Of a DNA stretch of 64,000 nt, positions 45,788 to 57,638 are shown piece by piece. The position numbers were made by a program, and so were the translations under genes. Below the pieces are notes generated by a model. That model ran no database searches, had not been told where the DNA came from, and saw only the letters and a program-made list of their open reading frames with translations. Origin of the DNA: Puniceicoccaceae bacterium (GTDB lineage Bacteria; Verrucomicrobiota; Verrucomicrobiia; Opitutales; Oceanipulchritudinaceae). The stretch lies in contig JBFOMH010000002.1 in NCBI GenBank assembly GCA_040830765.1, positions 55,465 through 119,464 of the forward strand, written 5' to 3'. The first letter of the stretch is position 1; each line of letters starts with the position of its first letter.

Positions 45788-46321
45788 ATGACCCTTGAAG
45801 AGCGACTGGAAACCTACCTCAGCCGGAGCCCGGAAATCGACCCGAGCGCCTATGTAGCACCATCGGCGGTAGTCATCGGTTCAGTAAAAGTCGGGCCCAA
45901 GGCCTCCGTGTGGCCCAATTGTGTCCTGCGGGGTGATATTGAGGACATTATTATTGGCGAAGGCTCCAACGTGCAGGACGGGACGGTCGTCCACCTTGCA
46001 GACGACCTCGCGGCGCGGGTGGGCAAGTACGTCACCATCGGGCATATGGCGATGATTCATGCCTGCACAATTGAGGATGAGTGCCTCATTGGGATGAAAG
46101 CGACCGTCCTTGACGGGGCGGTCATTGGCAAGCGCTCCATCGTCGGGGCCGGGGCCGTTGTCACCAAGAACACCATCGTTCCACCGGGCTCCCTCGTGCT
46201 GGGGATGCCGGCAAAAGTGGTCAAGCAGTTGAGTGAAGAAGAACAGGCCTCCCTGCGAACATGGGCCGAGAAATATGTCATCGTGGCAGCGGCCCACAAG
46301 GCACGCGAAGAGGAGCAATGA
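45788..46321 (+). CDS. Gamma carbonic anhydrase family (YrdA-like) protein
   Basis: Hexapeptide repeats; LRGD, SNVQDGTVVH, VTIGH.A.IHAC. Confidence 0.9.
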   Translation: MTLEERLETYLSRSPEIDPSAYVAPSAVVIGSVKVGPKASVWPNCVLRGDIEDIIIGEGSNVQDGTVVHLADDLAARVGKYVTIGHMAMIHACTIEDECLIGMKATVLDGAVIGKRSIVGAGAVVTKNTIVPPGSLVLGMPAKVVKQLSEEEQASLRTWAEKYVIVAAAHKAREEEQ

Positions 46322-47322
46322 CCAAGGGCCAGAAAATCCTCACCTACGCCACGGGATTTGCGCTTGGATGTCTCATCCTGGCAGTCATCCCCCGCGAGCG
46401 CGAAGCTCCCAAGGAACATCCCTGGCATGCCCAGACGGCCCTCGAGGGAAGTTACCCGATAGCCATAGAGGACGACCTTGGCCGGACCGTCCGCCTTGAG
46501 CGGCAGCCCCGGCATTTCATATCCCTTGCCCCGAGCATCACGGAAATCCTCTTTGCGATGGAGATGGGCGATCACCTGATGGCGGTTACCAAATGGTGTG
46601 ACTATCCAGAAGAAGCCCGCGCCCTTCGCGATGCCGGTGCCCACATCGGCTCGATGGACCAGCCCAACCGGGAACTGATCGCAACCTACCGCCCGGACTT
46701 GATCCTCGGTACGGACCTGACTCCCCCGGAAGTTTATGGTGCCATCGAGAATCCACCCAAGACGGTCGCGGTGGCACTGGCCCATGACAGCATGGAAGAC
46801 GTGATGGAGGACGTCCGCCTCATCGGTCGCCTGACGGGTGTGCCCGGCAAGGCATTGCGACTGATCGACGAGCTCGAGGCGGAGCAGGCTGCTGTCCGGA
46901 TGGGCCTTGAACCGTTTGCCTCAGCGTCGCCCAAGCAGGTGCTCTTCCTGCTCTCCATAGAGGAGTCGATGCAGCCGGGATGGGCACCGGGAGAGAACAC
47001 CTGGGTGCACAACCTGATCGAGGAGTCCCATGCCCGCAACCTGGCCGCGGAGCTGGGGAAGTCATGGGGTCAGGTCTCCCTTGAGGGCCTCCTGAGCATG
47101 AATCCGGAAATACTTCTCATCCGGGATGGTGAGTCCGCACAAGCGCAGGAAACCCTGCGAGCGCGCATCGCTAAGTTGCCGGAACACCCGGTCTGGAGGC
47201 AGGTCGAGGCCGTCAAAAGGGAACGGGTCCACATCCTTCCCTACGGTCCGCTGAACATTCCGGGACCCCGCATCATGGATGCATACTGCTCTGTCGCCAG
47301 CGCCGTCTGGGATCTGGACTAG
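46318..47322 (+). CDS. ABC transporter substrate-binding protein (BtuF/HmuT helical-backbone family)
   Basis: ISLAPSITEILFA, VTKWCDYPEEA, PGPRI; ATGA overlap with the upstream gene. Confidence 0.85.
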   Translation: MTKGQKILTYATGFALGCLILAVIPREREAPKEHPWHAQTALEGSYPIAIEDDLGRTVRLERQPRHFISLAPSITEILFAMEMGDHLMAVTKWCDYPEEARALRDAGAHIGSMDQPNRELIATYRPDLILGTDLTPPEVYGAIENPPKTVAVALAHDSMEDVMEDVRLIGRLTGVPGKALRLIDELEAEQAAVRMGLEPFASASPKQVLFLLSIEESMQPGWAPGENTWVHNLIEESHARNLAAELGKSWGQVSLEGLLSMNPEILLIRDGESAQAQETLRARIAKLPEHPVWRQVEAVKRERVHILPYGPLNIPGPRIMDAYCSVASAVWDLD

Positions 47323-47711
47323 GCCTGGCAATCCGGGCAGATGCCGTAGAAGATCGTCTCCTGTCCAGTGAGCTGGAATCCCTCCGGGGCCGGAATCTCG
47401 ACATCCGGAACCTCGACCTGAAGGTCGTAAACCCGGTCACAACGCCGGCAAATGAAATGGGCATGATGTCCATGGCTGACCCATTCATAACGCAGGGGCT
47501 GACCCGGGTAATCCACCCCGACGATCAAGCCCTCCTCGGACATGTCCTTCAACTGGCGATAGATCGTACGCAGCCCAATCTGGGGCAGGATGCGCTTTGC
47601 CCCCTTGTGGATTTCCGGCGGCGTGAGGGGTCGCTTTTCCTTCTGAAAAACCTCCTCGATGGCTAGCCTTTGCCGGGTCCTGCGGATCAAGGTTTCATCC
47701 TCCTGGATCAA
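47319..47711 (-). CDS. Fur-family transcriptional regulator
   Basis: TRQRLAI, IGLRTIYRQL, HHAHFICRRC and C-terminal CPDC; TTG start overlapping the upstream stop. Confidence 0.88.
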   Translation of the reverse strand: MIQEDETLIRRTRQRLAIEEVFQKEKRPLTPPEIHKGAKRILPQIGLRTIYRQLKDMSEEGLIVGVDYPGQPLRYEWVSHGHHAHFICRRCDRVYDLQVEVPDVEIPAPEGFQLTGQETIFYGICPDCQA

Positions 47712-48488: not shown

Positions 48489-49058
48489 TCAGGAACGCTG
48501 GCTCTTGCGGGTTTCCCGCTTTAACCGTTTCAATTTCTGGTCCAGCAAGCGAAGTTTCCGCTTTTCCATATGGTCAATAAACAAACGCCCGTTTAGATGG
48601 TCAACCTCGTGCTGGATCACTCGGGCGAACCAGCCACTGCAAACGAGTCGGTGAGGCGTGCCCTTGAGGTCCTGGTAGGTGACCTCGATGGACTCGGCGC
48701 GGGGAACGTCCCCCCGGATATCCGGAAAGGAGAGGCAGCCTTCCTCCCCGACCAAGGTCCGACCGGGCAGCACGCGGACAACGGGATTGACGAGGGCCAA
48801 GGGCATCAACAGGTCGATCGGTGGCCGCAACCCATCGAGTTGGTAGTCCAGTTCCTCCTCAGGCAACATGGAGACATCGACCACACAAAGCATCAGGGCC
48901 TTGTCGATCTGCTGGGCGGCAAGACCGACGCCCTCCTCGGCATACATCGTCTCCACCATGTTATCGGCCAGGTCCTTGAGCTGGTCATCAAAAACAGTGA
49001 CCGTTTCCCCGGTTTGCCGGAGGATCGGTTCGCCGTAATGTGTGACCCGTAAAACCAT
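48489..49058 (-). CDS. def: Peptide deformylase
   Basis: GVGLAAQQ, EEGCLSFP, QHEVDHLNG. Confidence 0.95.
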   Translation of the reverse strand: MVLRVTHYGEPILRQTGETVTVFDDQLKDLADNMVETMYAEEGVGLAAQQIDKALMLCVVDVSMLPEEELDYQLDGLRPPIDLLMPLALVNPVVRVLPGRTLVGEEGCLSFPDIRGDVPRAESIEVTYQDLKGTPHRLVCSGWFARVIQHEVDHLNGRLFIDHMEKRKLRLLDQKLKRLKRETRKSQRS

Positions 49059-49114
49059 GCGCTCCATTTAACAGCTTGCACCAAGCGGCCTGTCCAGTCA
49101 AATAAGGGATTCCG

Positions 49115-50812
49115 ATGGCTACCACCCCGGCAAAGCCAAGCCGCCCCTACCACCAGTCCATCTGGTATAAAATCCCGATGGCCGGCTTGCACTTGATCCT
49201 CGCGACCGCCGCGTTGTGGCTGGGTATGAGCATTCCCTCCTACTTCCGCTCCGTATCGCCGCTGGTCCTCGAGGCCGCAGCCGCAGGAACGCCGGACCTT
49301 GTCCAACAGGCGACCGACCAACTGCAAAGTGGCCGACCGGGCCTGGCCCAGCCCCTCCTGCAACTGGCAGCGAATCAGCCGGGCACATCGACCCTGCAGC
49401 TGCAGGCGGAGGCCCTTTTCGAGGCGAATCCCAACTACAAGTGGAGTGGCGGTCCGGCTCCTTTCTACGAACAGTTCCTGCAGCAGGCAGCCTTCCTGAG
49501 GGAGGATGAGACTTCCGTCATTCCAACCCTGCTTCCGGGTGAGCATCGCCGGCAATTGCTGGGCTTCCTCGAGCAAAGCCCAAACCGGAATGTCGGGCTT
49601 ATCTTGCAAACGCGTGAGCTTGATGGCTGGACGCGATTCTATCCGGTCAATTCCACCTCCGGCCAGCCCCTTGACGCCACTATCCTGACCACCGCCTTGC
49701 TGGAACAGTCGGGTGCCTTGCCTGAAGACCTCCGCCAGAGGCTGTTCAGCATCATTGAGACTGCTCTGGACAGGGGTCCCGAGGCCATCGCGCCGCTGGA
49801 ATCCTTTTATATCAGTATCCTGACCATCGGGCGCCGGGCCGACTGGATTCAGCTGCAAACGCTGGTGCAGGCCTCACGAACACCGGAACAACTGCTTTTC
49901 GCCGCCCAATCCCTGCAGGAGAATCCGGAGCGACTGCCGGTCCTCCTCGCTGCCAGCCTTAATGCCGAATCCAATCTGGCCCTGACGGGCTACCTCCACC
50001 GCCATGGCAAACGCGGATGGGAGGGGGTCGCCAGCGCGCTCCAGATGGGGCGTGGAGCTTTCGAGTCCCTGCTGGCCTTTGACAAGCCACTGTACCTACC
50101 GCCGGGATTCTGGTCGCGGCTGCCGGCTGAAGTCCGGGATAGCCAGAACACCTTCAAGACTTTCGCCGAGAGCTTCCCGGTATTAGGGATAGTCGCACGG
50201 GTGCTGGCTTTCGGCCTGTGCGGGTTCTTCCTCGTCGGCATCCTGAGGGTAATTATCCTTGGCCGGCGCCAGCGGGCCAGTCATGACCGCCGTGTCCTCA
50301 TCAACATCGACAGCCTCGTCGGGGCCGTCCTCGTCACCCTCCTGGTCTGGGTCCTGATTGAACCCGGACTGATGGATTTTCGTCCCAATGAACTGGGCAG
50401 CCTGCAAATCAAGCTGGCCCAGATCCTCCCGGAGGATAGCCTTTCCACAACCGAAAACGCCGTTTCCAAAATGATTGATCAAGTAACCATTCTCGTCCTG
50501 CTGCTGTTTTTCATCGCGCAGCTCCTGGTATTCATCTTTGGCCTGCTCAAGATAACGGAGATCCGCCGCCAGAAGGTTGCCCCGGAGGTCAAGCTGCACC
50601 TCCTCGACAATGAGGAAGTGCTCTTTGAACTGGGGCTTTATGTTGGGCTTGGAGGTACCGTGGGCTCACTGATCCTCGTTGTCCTCAACGTGGTCGATGC
50701 CAGCCTCATGGCGGCCTATGCCTCCACCCTTTTCGGCATCATCTTCGTGGCCATCCTGAAGGTCGGTTTCCTCCGGCCGTTCCGCCGCAACCTCATCCTT
50801 GGAAAAAACTGA
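49115..50812 (+). CDS. Uncharacterised membrane protein with a MotA/TolQ/ExbB-like C-terminal segment
   Basis: N-terminal TM, large helical domain, then several TMs ending GLYVGLGGTVGSLI...SLMAAYASTLFGIIFVAI. Confidence 0.6.
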   Translation: MATTPAKPSRPYHQSIWYKIPMAGLHLILATAALWLGMSIPSYFRSVSPLVLEAAAAGTPDLVQQATDQLQSGRPGLAQPLLQLAANQPGTSTLQLQAEALFEANPNYKWSGGPAPFYEQFLQQAAFLREDETSVIPTLLPGEHRRQLLGFLEQSPNRNVGLILQTRELDGWTRFYPVNSTSGQPLDATILTTALLEQSGALPEDLRQRLFSIIETALDRGPEAIAPLESFYISILTIGRRADWIQLQTLVQASRTPEQLLFAAQSLQENPERLPVLLAASLNAESNLALTGYLHRHGKRGWEGVASALQMGRGAFESLLAFDKPLYLPPGFWSRLPAEVRDSQNTFKTFAESFPVLGIVARVLAFGLCGFFLVGILRVIILGRRQRASHDRRVLINIDSLVGAVLVTLLVWVLIEPGLMDFRPNELGSLQIKLAQILPEDSLSTTENAVSKMIDQVTILVLLLFFIAQLLVFIFGLLKITEIRRQKVAPEVKLHLLDNEEVLFELGLYVGLGGTVGSLILVVLNVVDASLMAAYASTLFGIIFVAILKVGFLRPFRRNLILGKN

Positions 50813-50821
50813 TCCCTCCCG

Positions 50822-52153
50822 GTGAACAAGACGCTTCTCATTATTATCTGCGATTTCCTTCTTATCAGCATCCTCGCGCTGGTCGAGTTCAAGCCCAGTA
50901 TCGAGGAACAGCTGGTGGACGAGAAGAGCCTCCGCGACGAAGCCGCGGAGGAAATGCTGGAGCTGTTGCAGTTGTCGCTTGAACATGAAAGTTCACAGCG
51001 TAAGGAGGTGGAAACCTCCCTCGAAAACACCCGCGAGGAACTCGATACAACCAGGGAAAACCTCGATGAGACATCGCAATCCCTCGAGCAAGTGAGTGCG
51101 GATCTGCAGCAGACCGAAAGTGAACGGGTGGCATTGGCCAATTCACTGGAGGATACCCGCAGTTCGCTTGAGCTGACCCTGGAGGAGAAGCAGGCCATTG
51201 AAGCATCCTTGCGGCAGAACGAGGAACGCTCACGACGGCTGCAGGAGGAGTTGCGCACACAGCAGGCCCTGGCGGAACAGAAAAGTGCCGACCTTGCTGC
51301 CGCGGAGGATAACCTCTCCCGCCTGCAAGTCGAACAGCAGCAGATGGCCACCGAGCTTAAGATTCTCGATACAGAAAAGCAAATGCTGTCCCAGAATCTG
51401 ATCGCGGCCGAAGCCGAGGTGGAACGGGCCCGTATTGAAGCCGAACGCGCCCGTGTCCGTTCCGAGAGCCTTGCTGCCGGAGTGAGTGAACTGGCTGCTT
51501 CCTCGACGGCATTGAAGGAGGAGATCCGGCAGACCCAGCCCTTGTCCTTGAATGCCGTATACAAGACCTTTGAAGACAACCGGATCTTCATCCGCTTTTT
51601 CTGGGATGAGCGGGGGCTCTTCGCCACCAACCGGCGCGAGTCAGCCATCCAGTCCCTTCTGGTTGATACTGGAAATGGAATCTTCGCCTTGTTTGCGACT
51701 GCCAACACCCCCATTGACAAGGGCACCGGAATCGACCCGGCGGCGGACCTTGTCATCGGCTCGCGAAAGCTGGTCATCAGTGAAGTCGGATTCATGGTTG
51801 GGGAACCGGGCATTGCCGCGGTGCAGGTTCCGGTGGAGCTGGCCCGTGAAAGCGGCTTGCGGGTGTTTCCCATTGCCAGCGACCCCCTCAAGTTTTCCAC
51901 CGCTGTCCTAGTCACGGACGACCGGGAACTCTACGGGGAAATCCCGATCCGTGTCCCTCCCGGGGAGACCGGATTACTGGAAGTCGAGAGGAAGCTCTTT
52001 AATCGCCTCTTCGGCGAGTTCTCCCCCACCCCCGGTGACTATGTCTTTTCCATGACCGGGGAACTGACCGGCATCATGGTGGGCGACGACCGGGCCCGCA
52101 TTGTTGATAATCCCACCTTTTCCAACTTCCGTGCGCTCAGGGTGACGCAATAA
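50822..52153 (+). CDS. Uncharacterised membrane-anchored coiled-coil protein (Asp-containing N-terminal TM)
   Basis: TM LLIIICDFLLISILALV, a Glu/Gln-rich coiled coil of roughly 200 aa, and a beta-rich C-terminal domain; GTG start 9 nt after the upstream stop. Confidence 0.65.
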   Translation: MNKTLLIIICDFLLISILALVEFKPSIEEQLVDEKSLRDEAAEEMLELLQLSLEHESSQRKEVETSLENTREELDTTRENLDETSQSLEQVSADLQQTESERVALANSLEDTRSSLELTLEEKQAIEASLRQNEERSRRLQEELRTQQALAEQKSADLAAAEDNLSRLQVEQQQMATELKILDTEKQMLSQNLIAAEAEVERARIEAERARVRSESLAAGVSELAASSTALKEEIRQTQPLSLNAVYKTFEDNRIFIRFFWDERGLFATNRRESAIQSLLVDTGNGIFALFATANTPIDKGTGIDPAADLVIGSRKLVISEVGFMVGEPGIAAVQVPVELARESGLRVFPIASDPLKFSTAVLVTDDRELYGEIPIRVPPGETGLLEVERKLFNRLFGEFSPTPGDYVFSMTGELTGIMVGDDRARIVDNPTFSNFRALRVTQ

Positions 52154-52213: not shown

Positions 52214-53245
52214 ATGAATTATACCCTGCGTGTATTAAGATTGTTCTTCATGCTGCTTTGCATTGTCGGTGCATGGCTGATCAGTTATGTCGTTCCCGAG
52301 TGGGATGCCTATCGCTGGCTGGCCATATTCATCGGTGCGGGCATTGGGGCGTTGGTAGTCCTGATCGATGTCATGTTGAAAGGCTTTTCCCTGCGCGGCC
52401 TCTCCGCATTGACCTTCGGACTGTTTGCCGGTTGGGTCTGCGCGCACCTGATCGCCACCTCACCCTTTTTTGATTTCCCCTACGAGACCGGGGATGAAGC
52501 CAGCGTTATCCTGACCCAGAATCTCTATCTGATTCGAATGGCCCTTTACGTCATCCTGATGTACCTTGGTGCCGTCATCGCCCTCCGGGGCAAGGATGAG
52601 TTCAATTTGGTTATCCCCTATGTCCGTTTTGTTCCCCACGGAGTGGAGGTTCCACTGGTCGTTGTCGATACCAGTGCACTGATTGATGGCAGGCTGGTCG
52701 GTATTTGCCAAAGCCGCTTCATGGGATACGGTCTTGTTGTCCCCAGATTTGTTCTCGATGAGTTGCAAATGATCGCGGACTCAAAAGACCCCGACCGACA
52801 AACGCGCGGCAGAAAGGGGATAGAAACCCTAAACAGGCTTAGGGAAATGCCTCATGTGGATCTGCGGATCAATGAAAGTTCTGTCAGCAATCGGGAAAAA
52901 GTGGACGCCAAGTTGATTTTCCTCGCCCAATCCCTCAAGGCAAAGATCCTCACAACGGACTACAACCTGGCGCAAATAGCTGAATTCCATAATGTTGAGT
53001 GGCTGAACCTCAACGCCCTCGCCAAGGCCATGAATCCCGAGCTGGTCGTCGGCGACCGGCTTTCCATCAAGCTTACGAAGCGTGGCAAGGATACGGGCCA
53101 GGCTGTTGGATACCTCCCCGATGGATCGATGGTTGTAGTGGCTGACGCCACGACAGACATCGGGAACACGATTGAGGTTGAAGTGGAATCGATCATTCCT
53201 TCAGCCGGTGGAAAAATGGTGTTTTCCCGGAAAAAAGAGGGGTAA
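52214..53245 (+). CDS. PIN/TRAM domain membrane protein (YacL family)
   Basis: N-terminal TMs; PIN motifs VDTSALIDGR, VLDELQ, VDAKL and TTDYNL; TRAM-like GQAVGYLPDGSMVVV...SAGGKMVF. Confidence 0.88.
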   Translation: MNYTLRVLRLFFMLLCIVGAWLISYVVPEWDAYRWLAIFIGAGIGALVVLIDVMLKGFSLRGLSALTFGLFAGWVCAHLIATSPFFDFPYETGDEASVILTQNLYLIRMALYVILMYLGAVIALRGKDEFNLVIPYVRFVPHGVEVPLVVVDTSALIDGRLVGICQSRFMGYGLVVPRFVLDELQMIADSKDPDRQTRGRKGIETLNRLREMPHVDLRINESSVSNREKVDAKLIFLAQSLKAKILTTDYNLAQIAEFHNVEWLNLNALAKAMNPELVVGDRLSIKLTKRGKDTGQAVGYLPDGSMVVVADATTDIGNTIEVEVESIIPSAGGKMVFSRKKEG

Positions 53246-53386: not shown

Positions 53387-53728
53387 ATGAATAATAAGAG
53401 CAAAAAGGGCTTCACCCTCGTTGAAATTATGATCGTGGTCGTGATTATCGGCCTCTTGGCCGCGATGGCCATCCCTGCCTTCCAGAAGGTTCGTACTACC
53501 TCTCAGCAGAAGGCTGTTACTAACAACCTCCGTCAGCTTGCCGCTGCTGCTCAGCAGTACATGCTGGAAACAGGTGCCACCCAGGCTTCACAGACCAGCA
53601 TCATTGGTGACGGTCTCTGGCTGACCACTCTGGAGCAGGTTGCCACGGAAACATACCCGACCACCATTACTTCGGGTGATTCCGAAATCTCCACCACTGG
53701 CAATCCGGTTGTCACTTACACATTCTAA
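53387..53728 (+). CDS. Type IV pilin-like protein (probable major pilin)
   Basis: Class III signal KKG|FTLVEIMIVVVIIGLLAAMAIP; AGGAG RBS; codons typical of highly expressed genes (GGT/GCT/ACT/CGT); own terminator. Confidence 0.88.
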   Translation: MNNKSKKGFTLVEIMIVVVIIGLLAAMAIPAFQKVRTTSQQKAVTNNLRQLAAAAQQYMLETGATQASQTSIIGDGLWLTTLEQVATETYPTTITSGDSEISTTGNPVVTYTF

Positions 53729-53751: not shown

Positions 53752-53782
53752 AGTCGTCTCCCAACCGGGAGACGGCTTTTTT
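53752..53782 (+). terminator. Rho-independent terminator after the pilin gene
   Basis: AGTCGTCTCCC-AACC-GGGAGACGGCT followed by a T-run. Confidence 0.8.
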
Positions 53783-53805: not shown

Positions 53806-55695
53806 ATGAAGCAGGTTATCATCTTCACCATTATCGGGTTCCTGTCAGCAGGGTTGAGCTTCATTCTGGGAAACCATTATGCGCGGGGCGGACACATCGT
53901 TTACCTCACCTACCCCAATCTCCTGTTGAGCTTTGCCCTCTTTATCGGGGGTCTGTTCTTCCTTCACCGGAAGGAGTGGAGCTTCAAGCGACTCTTGCCG
54001 GAAACAAGGGGAGCATGGATCAGCGTAGTGGGCGTCAGCCTGCTGCTCTTGCTGCTGGAACCGTTTGAGTTCAAGATCATCTATGATGAGGTGTTGATGG
54101 CCGTGGCGGCTGAGATGATCCATTTCAGCCGGATCGTCGGGATGGCGACGATGGCCAACGACTACGACGGCAGCTACCAGTTTCTGCTGCCGATCCTGGA
54201 GAAGCGGCCTTTCTTTTTCCCGTTTCTGGTTTCGCTGGTTCATGACATATCCGGCTACCGCTACACCAATGTCTTTATCCTCAACGCCATTTTGACACCG
54301 GTCTTCCTTGTGCTCCTGAATTTTCTCGGGAAGCAATTCGGTGGAAGAAAAGGGGGGATACTTGCGGTTCTGCTTGCCGGCACCCTTCCGTTGCTGGCCC
54401 TGATGGCAACCAGCGGCAACCAGGACATCCTGAACCTGGTCATGCTTTGCCTGGCCCTGATACTCTCGTGGCTGTATTTATCCGCCCCGACGGACCGGCG
54501 TTTGATCCCGCTTGTCTACTGTCTCATCCTTTTCTTCCAGATTCGCTATGAAAACGGGGTCTTCCTGCTCCCCTTTGGAATACTGATCCTGATGGGCTGG
54601 CAACGAGCCAAACGGGCCATCCTTCCCTGGCCGGTCTTGATCAGTCCCCTGTTCCTGATCCTTCCCAGCATCCACTATTTCATCGTCACCAACAACTCCG
54701 GTCGTTACTTCCAGAGCGGCCCGGGCGGAAGGGAAAGCACCTTCTCCCTCGATTACTTCTCCGAGAACGTCGGAGCGGCCGGGCGGTTCCTTTTCTCAGT
54801 TGGCCAGGGCCTTCCCAATTCCATTCTCCTCACCATGCTTGGCTTCAGTTCCTTGCTGCTGTTCCTGTATTACGCAATGGTCAATTCGAGGAAGAAACGG
54901 GAAGCCACTGTCGCCTCGACAATCCTGCTCTTCCTGATGCTGGGCGTTGTCCTTCACCTGTCGCTGGTCTTACTTTTCAACTACGGCGTATTCGATTCCT
55001 ACCTGACAGCCCGCCTGAGCCTGCCGCTGAACCTGCTTTTCATTCTTCTTGTTCCCTTTGTCTTCAGGCGCTTCGGGCGACGTGCCATCCTCGTGACCCT
55101 GACCGTGTCCCTGGTCTGCCTCTACTTTGTCTTCCTCAACCTGGAGCCGACTTTCCTCTCGACGGTGGGTCTGCAGTTCCTTGCCGCAACGCTGGGCCTG
55201 CTGATCCTTGGGGCGGTCGTCTGGTTAAAGCGGGTGCCATCGCGCCAGGCGGCCATCATTGCCTGCCTGGCCTACATCATTGCCATTGGCCTGCCGGTCG
55301 GCCACGCGCAAAGGTATTCCAAGCGGGCCAACCACAACGATACCATGATGGGGGAGCTGGCTTTCCTCAAGGAACGGGAAGACGAGCGCATCCTCTGGGT
55401 TTCCTCCACCCCCTACGCAGCCTTGTTGAACCAGGTCAACTGCCTGCCGATTTCCCTCATGAAAGACGACCCGGCGAGCATAAAGACCTATCTGGACGAC
55501 AACAGCTATGACGCCATTTACATCTCCCGGCGGCTCAAAAGAAAACCCTCTGAAGCCTTCAAGCTGATCGAACCGCGCGAGTCATTTGATGAGTCCATCT
55601 TCCTGGTGGAGCCGGTGGAGCTAATTAAGTACAACATGACTACCCGTCTGGAGATCGTAAGGCTGGTTGGCATCAACTTACCAGACAACCAATGA
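53806..55695 (+). CDS. GT-C fold (ArnT/PMT-like) membrane glycosyltransferase
   Basis: More than 12 TMs; luminal-loop DE motif (KIIYDE), KRP..FP and IRYE. Confidence 0.65.
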   Translation: MKQVIIFTIIGFLSAGLSFILGNHYARGGHIVYLTYPNLLLSFALFIGGLFFLHRKEWSFKRLLPETRGAWISVVGVSLLLLLLEPFEFKIIYDEVLMAVAAEMIHFSRIVGMATMANDYDGSYQFLLPILEKRPFFFPFLVSLVHDISGYRYTNVFILNAILTPVFLVLLNFLGKQFGGRKGGILAVLLAGTLPLLALMATSGNQDILNLVMLCLALILSWLYLSAPTDRRLIPLVYCLILFFQIRYENGVFLLPFGILILMGWQRAKRAILPWPVLISPLFLILPSIHYFIVTNNSGRYFQSGPGGRESTFSLDYFSENVGAAGRFLFSVGQGLPNSILLTMLGFSSLLLFLYYAMVNSRKKREATVASTILLFLMLGVVLHLSLVLLFNYGVFDSYLTARLSLPLNLLFILLVPFVFRRFGRRAILVTLTVSLVCLYFVFLNLEPTFLSTVGLQFLAATLGLLILGAVVWLKRVPSRQAAIIACLAYIIAIGLPVGHAQRYSKRANHNDTMMGELAFLKEREDERILWVSSTPYAALLNQVNCLPISLMKDDPASIKTYLDDNSYDAIYISRRLKRKPSEAFKLIEPRESFDESIFLVEPVELIKYNMTTRLEIVRLVGINLPDNQ

Positions 55696-57638
55696 ATGCA
55701 GATGCCAATCCAACATCCGACACACGGCTGCTCCCCGGCAACTGGCTGCCGCTGGCATTGGTACCGTTGCTGTGCATGGCCGGTGCCGCCGTCGGGTACC
55801 TGATCCCCGATAAGATCCGGGGTGACTTGATTGCCTTTGCCGGGTTCGGCATATGCATCCTGCTGCTGGCATTTATTGGCCTCCGGATCGCGAGGATTCA
55901 TGGAGCCTCCCTCAGCATCAGGGGAATTACCGGCAACCTTCCCCTGATAGGCACGTGCGCGGTTATCGTCTTCATCTACAGCCAGATTGATCACCGGGCC
56001 AATAAGGTAATCCTCGATGAGTTGATCCTGCAAAGCTCGGCCATGCAGTTGCTCGACAACAACGAGTACAGGGCACCGCAGTTTGCGGAGAATCTAAGTA
56101 GTGAATTTTCATTACATCTGGGCGTTCCGGACAAGCGGCCACCAATGTATCCTGTCGTCCTCTCGATTGTCCACCGGGTACTGGGATACAGCCAGGCCAA
56201 TGGATACATCCTGAACGGGATTCTCGGGTTCCTGACCCTGCTCTTGATTGGCAAAGCAGGAGAGCAGATCTACCCGAGGTGGGGAGGCCTCCTGTCCATA
56301 CTCGGAATGGCATCGATACCGCTCCTTTCACAGAACGTGACCAGCCAGCACCTTGAGCTGCTGTACTTGTTCCTGATCAGTTTCCTCTTCCTGACCTGTT
56401 TGCGGATTACCATCAGGGGCAACAGCGGTGAACTTTCCCTGGCCTATCTTCTGGCAGCCGCCATCGCCCTGACCCGATATGAGGGATTGCTCTTCTTCAT
56501 GGTTCCGTTCGCGATGCACCTGTTTCTTGCCTGGAAGAAGCAATCCGTGCGGGAGCTGAGAGCCGTCTACCTCATCTGTCCCCTGGCGATTGCCTACATC
56601 TTCACCCTGGTCGGCTACATCTTTACGGTTCCCGGATTCTGGCAACTGGATGACCTGCAGAATACAAGTGCTTTTGGCATTCACTACTGGCAACAGAATA
56701 CCGGCGCCCTGTTGATGTTCCTCTTCAACACAAGCCGGGATTTGCCGGGCTCGCTCCCGCTCTCGATGTTGTGCCTGGCTTCCCTGCCGATCACCATACT
56801 CTACATTAGCAAGTCCATCACACCGGCAGGGAAAGATAATCCATCAGCCCTTGAGGAATCGTTGCCGATCGCCGCCCTCCTGCTGACCATGCTGTTGTTC
56901 CTGGGGCTGATCTTCTCCTACCACTGGGGCTATGTTAATTCCCACCTCACCGCCCGCTTTCTGCTCTTTCCCTATTTCATCATGGGGGCATCCGCTCTCT
57001 ACGCTTTCAAGCGTGAGCCCTTCTGGCTGCTGGTCATCGCTTCTTTCCTGACCTTGTTTGCCGGTATTCTCTCCAGCCAACTGGATGGACCCGGGCCCGG
57101 ATTCTCCTATTATCTTGTGTTGCTGGCTTTTGCCGGGCTTGCCGGGCTGCACCTGAAAGACCGCAGTGTGCAACGGATTCCTCAAGTGATGGCACTGTTC
57201 TGGGTCCTCTTCCTGCTCTGCGAAACATTCCCGGCCATCAACCAGAGACAATACGAGCGGGACTACCTTCCGATTCCACGGACAAAAGCATTCCTCGAGT
57301 GGGTGGATAGCTACTCCGGGACCAACTCGGTTTTCATTTCCAATTCGCCCTACTATGGCATCCTCAACAAGGAGTCCGCCACGTCCATTGAAAGGTTCAG
57401 TGGCAATCCCCAAAGGCTCCTCTCACTTGCCGGCAATAAACGGTTCAGCAATATCTTTGTCATGCAGGAAGTCGGACGCGTGGAAAGTGGCGAGTTAATC
57501 CCTTACGCAGGTTACCAACTCCCTCCGGAAATTACCTTTGAGACCGTAGAGGAAAAACGGATTGTCGGCGACTTCGGTGTCCGCCTGGTGCGCATTACTG
57601 GTATTAGGAAGGATCCGGCCGGGGCAGTTTCCGAATGA
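55692..57638 (+). CDS. GT-C fold membrane glycosyltransferase, paralog of the upstream gene
   Basis: KVILDE, DKRPPMYP, TRYE, LTARF; ATGA overlap. Confidence 0.65.
   Translation: MNADANPTSDTRLLPGNWLPLALVPLLCMAGAAVGYLIPDKIRGDLIAFAGFGICILLLAFIGLRIARIHGASLSIRGITGNLPLIGTCAVIVFIYSQIDHRANKVILDELILQSSAMQLLDNNEYRAPQFAENLSSEFSLHLGVPDKRPPMYPVVLSIVHRVLGYSQANGYILNGILGFLTLLLIGKAGEQIYPRWGGLLSILGMASIPLLSQNVTSQHLELLYLFLISFLFLTCLRITIRGNSGELSLAYLLAAAIALTRYEGLLFFMVPFAMHLFLAWKKQSVRELRAVYLICPLAIAYIFTLVGYIFTVPGFWQLDDLQNTSAFGIHYWQQNTGALLMFLFNTSRDLPGSLPLSMLCLASLPITILYISKSITPAGKDNPSALEESLPIAALLLTMLLFLGLIFSYHWGYVNSHLTARFLLFPYFIMGASALYAFKREPFWLLVIASFLTLFAGILSSQLDGPGPGFSYYLVLLAFAGLAGLHLKDRSVQRIPQVMALFWVLFLLCETFPAINQRQYERDYLPIPRTKAFLEWVDSYSGTNSVFISNSPYYGILNKESATSIERFSGNPQRLLSLAGNKRFSNIFVMQEVGRVESGELIPYAGYQLPPEITFETVEEKRIVGDFGVRLVRITGIRKDPAGAVSE

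Follow-up and report, generated by a model that had tools for sequence, protein, structure and literature searches.

A conserved gene pair of Verrucomicrobiota with a candidate stator-like membrane core and a periplasmic rod ending in a pseudoprotease

Anatomy, linkage and conservation of genes A and B

We analyzed a stretch of 64,000 nucleotides (nt) from Puniceicoccaceae bacterium (GCA_040830765.1, contig JBFOMH010000002.1, positions 55,465-119,464, forward strand), hereafter referred to as the window, in which two adjacent genes, here called A and B, encode a protein with six predicted membrane helices and a bitopic protein with a long coiled coil. An initial annotation of the window had suggested that the pair is a divergent relative of ion-driven motors such as MotAB and ExbBD. 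The features of the two genes are listed below, with lengths in amino acids (aa) and with residue numbers that refer to the encoded proteins; the head domain was identified from an AlphaFold2 (AF2) model and Foldseek.

49115-50812, plus strand: gene A, 565 aa, ATG start, six predicted membrane helices
49244-50170, plus strand: A residues 44-352, all-alpha soluble domain that separates helices 1 and 2, predicted to be periplasmic
50297-50809, plus strand: A residues 395-565, conserved four-helix core (helices 3-6), the sole part common to the short forms of A
50630-50695, plus strand: A helix 5, LGLYVGLGGTVGSLILVVLNVV, with the G-x-x-G-T-V motif and Thr515 (Thr or Ser in all forms)
50702-50770, plus strand: A helix 6, SLMAAYASTLFGIIFVAILKVGF, with the A-x-x-S-T-x-x-G motif and the invariant Ser537
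50822-52153, plus strand: gene B, 443 aa, GTG start, bitopic
50831-50890, plus strand: B residues 4-23, membrane helix, the best-conserved part of B
50852-50854, plus strand: GAT codon of Asp11, the sole charged residue within the B helix
50900-51517, plus strand: B residues 27-232, coiled-coil rod with 0 Pro, 1 Gly and 67% E/Q/L/A/R/K
50951-50992, plus strand: B residues 44-57 (EMLELLQLSLEHES), conserved periplasmic segment after a variable linker, with S52, L53 and E56 nearly invariant
51515-52150, plus strand: B residues 232-443, chymotrypsin-fold (HtrA/S1C-like) domain without a catalytic triad

Scanning a single genome of each species yielded 319 loci with a relative of B, of which 80 were kept; the locus counts given below refer to these 80. 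Co-occurrence of the two genes, which the initial annotation had named as a check, was borne out: a homolog of A lies immediately upstream of B in 78 of the 80 loci, and the remaining two start too close to B. The gap between the genes, 9 nt in the window, was between -8 and +20 nt in 58 of the 78 loci, with a 4-nt overlap in 16 of the 78. Judged by this gene order, the two genes are tightly linked and have been inherited together. The sole other widely conserved neighbor is the peptide deformylase gene def, which is divergent from A in 59 of the 80 loci, and a clustering of all flanking open reading frames (ORFs) in the long-form loci recovered A, B and def only, with no third conserved partner and no conserved ATPase.

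Homology searches recovered 75 relatives of A and 105 relatives of B from Puniceicoccaceae, Opitutales and other Verrucomicrobiota, all of which are unnamed or labeled "hypothetical". No Pfam family matched A at E<=1, no usable family was found for it in NCBIfam, and full-text literature searches returned no paper on the A-B family. A profile built on the C-terminal 120 residues of A was run against 301 sampled Verrucomicrobiota genomes and matched 112 of these, with one match per genome. In several families every sampled genome or almost every one gave a match (5/5, 23/26 and 46/48), and no match came from other families (0/23 and 0/15) or from a number of small genomes belonging to the same order. 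A broader profile built from 29 long and short forms gave the same picture, with matches in 113 of the 301 genomes.

In many lineages the matching ORF was just ~170-230 aa long. We retrieved 14 loci with such short ORFs, 12 of which carry a short A of 169-206 aa with four helices, and two of which contain long forms. In all 14 loci, the gene directly after A is B-like (485-629 aa) and encodes a protein with the N-terminal helix of B and a C-terminal motif that matches. The short A consists of helix 1, a periplasmic loop, helix 2, a 25-residue cytoplasmic loop, and helices 3 and 4, and the B encoded next to a short A is longer (median 574 aa, n=12) than that next to a long A (464 aa, n=77). Since the short forms carry these four helices alone and are still paired with a B-like gene, sequence comparison places the conserved core of A at residues ~395-565 (helices 3-6), with helices 1-2 and the periplasmic domain as a lineage-specific addition.

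The hydropathy profile of A contains six helices, at residues ~22-40, 363-381, 401-419, 457-475, 506-524 and 530-548. The strings GLYVGLGGTVGSLI and SLMAAYASTLFGIIFVAI, which had drawn attention to the C-terminal end of A in the initial annotation, were found in the last two of these helices (residues 506-527 and 530-552). The N-terminal tail, the loop connecting helix 2 to helix 3 and the C-terminal tail together contain 10 Lys or Arg residues and a single Asp or Glu; by the positive-inside rule, both ends of A are predicted to be cytoplasmic, residues 44-352 to be periplasmic and the four-helix core to have an N-in/C-in topology. The cytoplasmic parts are tiny, consisting of a loop of 25 residues and a tail of 13 residues. 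The extra soluble domain of ~300 aa, also recognized at the outset, corresponds to the 309 residues 44-352, which are helical with predicted local distance difference test (pLDDT) values mostly of 88-97 in an AF2 model of the whole of A. This model has an overall pLDDT of 81.3 and ends in three helices of ~34 residues each. The periplasmic domain is present solely in the long form and is missing from the ~180-aa short forms; in the ESM Atlas it recovered only own-family clusters from Verrucomicrobiota, with template modeling (TM) scores of 0.83-0.87, and named clusters had TM scores of 0.34 or lower.

Mean pairwise identity among the long forms of A is highest in helix 6 (0.87) and helix 5 (0.83), followed by helix 4 (0.67), helix 3 (0.48), helix 1 (0.44) and helix 2 (0.35). 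Ten residues are invariant across the 29 long and short forms (Q469, L508, Y509, G511, G514, A534, Y535, S537, G541 and I542), and position 515 is either Thr or Ser in all of them. The motif positions G511, G514, Thr/Ser515, A534, S537 and G541 are also invariant or nearly so in 39 homologs. Conserved polar residues inside the helices are Gln469, Tyr509, Thr/Ser515, Tyr535, Ser537 and Thr/Asn538, and no conserved Lys or Arg was found within the helices in the 29-sequence alignment.

The only hydropathy helix of B, residues 5-23, contains LLIIICDFLLISIL. Because just three residues precede the helix, nearly all of B is periplasmic. The membrane helix has a mean pairwise identity of 0.78, the coiled coil one of 0.34 and the head one of 0.36, and a single-pass helix that is conserved on all faces fits one that is enclosed by protein. 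The single Asp to which the initial annotation had pointed, Asp11, is invariant in all 48 B homologs, and the Asp is present in 88 of 88 distinct B N-termini, of which 74, taken from the 80 loci, were fetched by means of an Asp-containing peptide pattern and are not independent, and 14 were found via A. These 14 loci keep the Asp in the contexts CDF, LDV, IDV and MDF. Since the helices of A hold no conserved basic residue, the alignments indicate that Asp11 is not half of a salt bridge. Further along, pairwise identity in residues 44-57 is 0.54, as compared to 0.22 in the linker that precedes them.

Residues 27-232 of B show a hydrophobic periodicity of 3.5 residues that was equalled by 11 of 2000 shuffles, in agreement with the coiled coil of ~200 aa proposed earlier, and the rod matched only coiled-coil families and chains in Pfam, NCBIfam and PDB sequences (best PDB E 9.8e-5, obtained with the alignment of full-length B). 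The C-terminal domain, with FSPTPGDYVFSMTGELTGIMV located near the C-terminus, was modeled by AF2 from the last 212 residues and a 34-sequence alignment drawn from the loci (pLDDT 91.1, predicted TM score 0.87). HtrA, DegP, DegQ and DegS were on top of the Foldseek matches of this model (E 1.2e-5, TM 0.45-0.56), with 86 matches at E<=0.001. The matches retrieved by VIA had Z scores of 12-13.5 over 152-177 aligned residues and included an astrovirus protease, the S1C domain of RsgI9, HtrA from M. tuberculosis, human HtrA1 and the 3C protein of HAV. As modeled, the head is a full double barrel of the chymotrypsin type.

The fold of the head raises the possibility that B is an active, membrane-anchored quality-control protease of the HtrA type, with A as an unrelated partner or a substrate gate. 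With HtrA, DegP and DegS of the S1C family it shares the double beta-barrel and a GxLxGI strand, which is in register with the three HtrA paralogs of the same genome in hhalign comparisons, although the overall alignment is weak (P 0.13). Unlike these proteases, however, the head has neither the catalytic His nor the catalytic Ser: residues 232-443 of the window's B contain no His at all, the 34 head sequences have no His, Ser or Asp column with at least 90% conservation, and the column facing the catalytic Ser of HtrA is variable. The head has no Trypsin_2 match in Pfam and no PDZ domain, the protein ends shortly after the barrel, and the domain shares its chain with a membrane helix and a coiled coil. 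Because it lacks His and a conserved Ser, the head is a pseudoprotease, as the degenerate trypsin-like tail of the initial annotation had implied, and an active protease is very improbable. A similar fold is found in the S1C domain of RsgI9 (7sjy), a degenerate relative of HtrA, and MamO is listed as another degenerate HtrA relative (PMC4794232). These data establish the anatomy of the two proteins, their conservation and gene linkage, as well as the fold that the head adopts and the fact that its triad has been lost.

The core of A compared to MotA/ExbB and FtsX

The initial annotation had placed A in the MotA/ExbB superfamily. As far as the motifs are concerned this has held; profile-profile comparisons are suggestive, searches with the family profile leave A undetected, and its structural matches are within the noise of helical bundles. 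Likeness in motifs and layout was checked on the nine ExbB and five ExbD paralogs of the genome. The genome has nine PF01618 genes, none of which is located in the window, and the invariant columns of these nine paralogs read P..G..GTV.G and A...T...L...I. A keeps the matching columns as G511..G514-T515-V and A534...S537-T538..G541. The profile-profile tests against ExbB were fixed beforehand. In the first of these, an hhalign comparison of the A core (50 sequences) to the nine ExbB paralogs gave a P of 0.0022 (score 27.4) with both helices in register, helix 5 of A being aligned with GLLGTV and helix 6 with ALxTTxxGL of the ExbB paralogs. Against 129 ExbB sequences the P value was 0.0031, again with both helices in register, as compared to 0.07-0.18 in controls with one side reversed.

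When the 13,628 ORFs of the genome were ranked with a hidden Markov model (HMM) of the A core, ExbB paralogs were recovered at the 11th, 20th, 32nd and 44th positions. The presence of four of the nine paralogs in the top 44 corresponds to a hypergeometric P of 1.2e-8 if all ORFs are considered and 8.7e-4 if only the 788 scoring ORFs are considered. In the reverse search, an ExbB HMM placed A 14th of the 13,628 ORFs. A structure search with the A core over 48,161 chains had ZorA among its top 50 matches (8qyh_A, Z 10.3; 8vvn_C, Z 9.1, residues 406-565), along with ExbB (Z 8.6), whose 17% identity was the highest in the top-50 list. The five ExbD/TolR-like genes of the genome have the same layout as B, with a basic stub, about seven hydrophobic residues and an Asp. 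The evidence is suggestive, and a link of A to MotA/ExbB is plausible but unproven.

Many observations weigh against such a link. The structural Z scores of 8.6-10.3 are within the range of unrelated bundles, such as the ribosome recycling factor (11.8), spectrin repeats (9-10) and designed bundles. The PF01618 profile, with a gathering score of 22.9 bits, went undetected in A and matched one of 29 A-family members at a sub-threshold 14.4 bits, in comparison to the six of 29 that were matched by noise families. A profile of the A core reached 516 clusters among 1.84 billion representatives, the best 150 of these 516 all belonged to its own family, with 77 weaker hits at E 1e-10 to 1e-3, and the very large canonical stator family is not reached. 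An alignment of full-length A gave a best E of 0.2 against PDB sequences (the middle domain of HSP90), residues 446-565 of A recovered only their own family in the ESM Atlas, with named clusters at a TM score of 0.52 or lower, and the whole A model gave no Foldseek match at E<=0.001. The hhalign probabilities of the A core versus ExbB were only 10-13%, and the best match of the core among PDB sequences was FtsX (8tzj_C, E 0.052, 16.6 bits). The loop in the hairpin of helices 5 and 6 is ~10 residues shorter than that of ExbB, and A is without the cytoplasmic domain that is typical of stators. As for B, no OmpA-like or ExbD/TolR domain was found in Pfam or NCBIfam, as had been stated at the outset, and hhalign of the 88 B N-termini to the five ExbD/TolR-like genes gave a P of 0.52, so that the two are alike in layout only, with no profile similarity.

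Low P values against the A core, in the range of 1e-5 to 1e-3, were also reached by families that had been chosen after a search, which further detracts from the comparison with ExbB. The broader profile gave seven weak extra matches in the 301 genomes (E 7e-5 to 0.04), about as many as expected by chance over this number of genomes; they represent three RnfG-like proteins, one ABC permease, one NuoN-like protein, a spurious ORF and a true member of MotA_ExbB. A MotA_ExbB subfamily that is divergent but genuine (PF01618, 26 bits) aligned with the A core at a P of 5.5e-5 and a probability of 66%, and an RnfG-like N-terminal anchor that was picked likewise did so at a P of 8.9e-6. Since the unrelated anchor outscores the true MotA_ExbB subfamily, matches chosen after a large search are no proof, and weight can be given solely to the tests that were fixed beforehand, whose results are moderate. 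The MotA_ExbB subfamily, which has a coiled coil, was accordingly dropped as proof of a bridge to the stators.

In RnfG/NqrC-like FMN-binding proteins (L131:422-1093, minus strand; also L130 and L132), the N-terminal anchor has 48% identity over 29 columns to the loop and helix 5 of A, with an hhalign probability of 83%, and is a warning on profile matches between membrane helices. Members of the divergent MotA_ExbB subfamily (L134:554-1534, minus strand; also L137-L156) have a membrane part of ~180 residues and a C-terminal coiled coil in a ZorA-like layout. They were found in 20 of the 301 Verrucomicrobiota genomes, with a small MotB-like ORF adjoining. Two of the nine ExbB/TolQ paralogs in the genome of the window have N-terminal extensions of ~270 residues.

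The FtsX match brings in a different explanation, according to which the A core is of the MacB/FtsX type and B corresponds to EnvC, PcsB or CwlO. ATPase-driven conformational changes in A would then be relayed along the coiled coil to the pseudoprotease head, through which a periplasmic hydrolase would be switched. The match to 8tzj_C spans a helix, the cytoplasmic loop and a helix, and the topology of the short A also fits an FtsX domain. EnvC pairs a coiled coil with a dead enzyme domain, which the architecture of B recalls. Moreover, the genome, which is 96.9% complete, has no FtsX_ECD match and no FtsE above the equivalog cut-off; the missing FtsEX makes the analogy tempting and gives no support to homology. 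The genome does contain 18 FtsX domains of the MacB/LolCE type in addition to the nine ExbB/TolQ paralogs. Yet in hhalign the A core aligned with these 18 PF02687 domains at a P of 0.1, close to the 0.11-0.15 of reversed controls, PF02687 ORFs ranked 155th or lower with the A-core HMM, and Pfam searches did not find PF02687 in A or in the 29 family members. No conserved ATPase gene is located nearby, and an EnvC-type partner needs no invariant membrane Asp. In sum, the pair is like FtsEX-EnvC in its four-helix subunit with a short cytoplasmic loop and in a partner that combines a coiled coil with a degenerate enzyme, and unlike it in that an ATPase partner and a PF02687 match are missing and that the partner is membrane-anchored with an invariant Asp. 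We consider an FtsX-type relay improbable.

A candidate ion-driven force transducer

Motors of the 5:2 stator type power flagella, TonB-dependent uptake, the Tol-Pal system, gliding, type IX secretion and Zorya defense. The interpretation that we favor, at even odds, is that A-B is a divergent stator-like, ion-driven force transducer, and we infer its stator homology or analogy, ion coupling, stoichiometry, movement, target and physiological role as follows. A and B would form an inner-membrane complex that works like the MotAB, ExbBD and TolQR stator units. Helices 5 and 6 of A, with their Gly-x-x-Gly-Thr/Ser and Ala-Tyr-x-Ser-Thr/Asn motifs, would line a channel that accommodates the helix of B, and Asp11, lined by Thr/Ser515, Ser537, Tyr509, Tyr535 and Gln469, would take up and release H+ (or Na+). 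The flow of ions would drive a rotation or a conformational cycle of B relative to A, and since A has almost no cytoplasmic mass, the output would be directed outward via B. As a dimer, B would have a coiled coil of ~200 residues, roughly 30 nm long if fully extended, as derived from the rise per residue. This rod would place two dead HtrA-like heads at the cell wall or the outer membrane, and the heads would grip a peptide-like target there. The machine would couple the ion-motive force to a process in the envelope, as TonB, TolA and GldM do. Because the genome has no recognizable FtsEX, A-B could be the lineage's own coupling of membrane energy to the remodeling of the wall or the outer membrane.

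The same anatomy can be read as a passive tether or spacer of the envelope, in which the rod of B is anchored in the membrane, the head binds the wall or the outer membrane, and A is a receptor or stabilizer, with no ion flow or movement. Asp11 would in that case make only polar helix-helix contacts with the Gln, Tyr, Ser and Thr residues of A. The rod and the head are real, no search joins A to an energy-coupling family, and polar residues in membrane helices may serve assembly alone. The pattern of conservation argues against this explanation, in that conservation peaks in the membrane helices and not in the rod or the head, and an invariant buried carboxylate without a basic partner would be costly for mere anchoring. 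In addition, the a priori tests against ExbB exceed their controls. A purely passive role appears unlikely.

As a candidate transducer, A-B resembles ExbB-ExbD and TolQ-TolR in that the genes are adjacent, the C-terminal end of the A-type subunit is a helix hairpin bearing G-x-x-G-T-V and A-x-x-[ST]-T-x-x-G, the B-type subunit consists of a short basic stub, a helix with a single Asp and a periplasmic remainder, and the proposed output is to the envelope. In contrast to ExbB and TolQ, A escapes detection by PF01618, has a cytoplasmic loop of 25 aa and a shorter hairpin loop, and in its long form carries two extra helices and the periplasmic domain of ~300 aa. In contrast to ExbD and TolR, B has no ExbD/TolR domain and carries the rod and the head itself, with no separate TonB or TolA. 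MotAB and PomAB are like A-B with respect to the four-helix core in an N-in/C-in orientation and the Asp on the partner helix, and also in the conserved segment that follows the helix of B, for which a plug-like role is a guess. A-B differs from them by having no large cytoplasmic torque loop, no OmpA-like peptidoglycan-binding domain and no nearby flagellar genes. GldL-GldM is composed of a small membrane subunit and a bitopic one, which reaches across the periplasm with its periplasmic part and thereby transmits the output; the system uses a Glu/Arg pair, with no Asp on the bitopic subunit, and GldM has Ig-like domains. At this level of general description, A-B is like GldL-GldM in its subunit plan and unlike it in the Asp, the coiled coil and the protease fold.

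TolQ-like pentamers with Asp-bearing "transpore helix"-vWA proteins have been proposed in Verrucomicrobia and Proteobacteria (PMC12204202). As presented there, this system shares with A-B an Asp-bearing B-type subunit, a non-canonical periplasmic head and a proposed direct transduction of force, and it has a recognizable TolQ homolog and a vWA head on a disordered linker (PMC12204202). In A-B, by comparison, A is unrecognizable to profiles and a dead HtrA-like head is placed on a coiled coil.

Tentatively, and with slightly less confidence than an even chance would give, we propose that A-B represents an unrecognized family of ion-driven envelope motors of the stator type, with a channel subunit beyond the profile libraries and a rotor or axle that is itself a periplasm-spanning transducer, gripping via a dead HtrA-like domain. 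If true, a channel subunit that is unseen by profiles suggests that more such motors are hidden, and a rigid coiled coil ending in a pseudoprotease would be a new output design; each new partner domain has shown a new way of bringing the energy of the membrane to the envelope. Several major Verrucomicrobiota lineages carry the family, which is without any annotation, and the residues named by a defined hypothesis are Asp11 in B together with Thr515 and Ser537 in A. Even if the motor interpretation fails, A-B is a conserved envelope complex that deserves a name.

Neighboring genes, the defense proposal and expression

The genes and terminator-like sites around A and B are listed here by position.

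48489-49067, minus strand: peptide deformylase gene def, divergent from A (Pfam Pep_deformylase, E 7.4e-49)
50601-50616, 50620-50636 and 51581-51594, plus strand: minor terminator-like stems of 5-6 pairs inside A or B
52214-53245, plus strand: membrane PIN/TRAM gene, next after B (PIN 25.7 bits, cut-off 23.6; TRAM 18.8 bits, sub-threshold)
53387-53728, plus strand: prepilin-type (pseudo)pilin gene (N_methyl, E 2e-9; GspG and PilA N-terminal matches)
53752-53777, plus strand: terminator-like hairpin after the pilin gene, 11 pairs and a T run
53935-53952, plus strand: two minor terminator-like sites downstream, 5-6 pairs

The Pfam matches agree with the initial annotation in that a PIN/TRAM gene and a pilin gene follow B on the same strand. 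A functional link to either gene, which had been thought conceivable, is not upheld by gene order: the PIN/TRAM gene is located 3' of B in 8 of the 80 loci, all from close relatives, and the pilin gene in 7 of the 80, from the closest relatives only. The PIN/TRAM protein is membrane-anchored, with four N-terminal helices, and presumably resembles the widespread YacL-type proteins. Among the terminator-like sites on the plus strand past the start of A, the hairpin at 53752-53777 has by far the longest stem and the best tail, with the remaining sites having stems of 5-6 pairs only. Since the only strong hairpin of this kind stands 3' of the pilin gene, A, B and the PIN/TRAM and pilin genes may form one transcript in this genome, in an arrangement that is local.

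A Zorya-like role in defense had also been raised, which would make A the counterpart of ZorA and B that of ZorB in an anti-phage module, perhaps with the PIN/TRAM protein as its effector. In favor of it, the structural matches of the A core include chains of ZorA (Z 9.1-10.3), Zorya systems include a long coiled coil, and a PIN-domain gene is present 3' of B in the window. The coiled coil of Zorya is, however, the cytoplasmic tail of ZorA, whereas that of A-B is periplasmic and located on B, and A has no such cytoplasmic tail. PADLOC did not match A, B or the PIN/TRAM gene to ZorA or ZorB, and its matches were weak and to proteins other than Zor (CARF_TM for A, E 0.018; the coiled-coil proteins JetC/LmuB for B, E 0.003 or weaker). 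The position of the PIN/TRAM gene 3' of B is, as noted, confined to a tenth of the loci, and the distribution of A-B is housekeeping-like, with one copy per genome, presence in most or all genomes of several families and def adjoining in housekeeping surroundings. With these results the defense proposal has been abandoned, a Zorya-like module being scarcely credible.

We also compared the window to contigs from two metatranscriptomic libraries, which match the stretch without differences and extend over the greater part of A, B and the PIN/TRAM gene. The depth of the contigs was about 3-48 over the covered parts of these three genes, and roughly 0-48 if all of the sequence of the genes ahead of the pilin gene is considered, as compared to 712-890 over the pilin gene in one library and 1151-1545 in the other. 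This 50-fold contrast in depth argues that the contigs reflect RNA; the organism is present, with the three genes probably expressed at modest levels, and the prepilin-type gene probably has a promoter of its own and codes for a major (pseudo)pilin at very high expression. B and the PIN/TRAM gene are joined by one contig. None crosses the A-B junction with 31 letters on each side, and the contigs cannot show transcript ends.

Just 3' of the pilin gene are two tandem, overlapping genes for large polytopic glycosyltransferases of the PMT_2 type (53806-55695 and 55692-57638; E 5e-9 and 4.9e-8), for which glycosylation of the pilin or the envelope might be a candidate role. On the other side, just upstream of a sugar-isomerase gene and def, a gene for a periplasmic binding protein and a divergent gene for a Fur-family regulator are located at 46261-47711, a context of housekeeping metal uptake and no defense island.

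Two further observations concern the relatives of the pair. A contig of 2308 bp filed under a metagenome-assembled genome (MAG) of Leisingera (L013) contains A and the start of B with 84-88% identity to the window, and is probably verrucomicrobial DNA that was binned into an alphaproteobacterial MAG. In 6 of the 12 short-form loci (L090:6058-8340, L091, L092, L096, L097 and L103), a Hanks-type Ser/Thr kinase gene (Pkinase match, E 4.7e-32) lies downstream within a few bases of B, and one kinase that was checked to its end region has a C-terminal FGE-sulfatase-like domain, which hints at a signaling link in that lineage.

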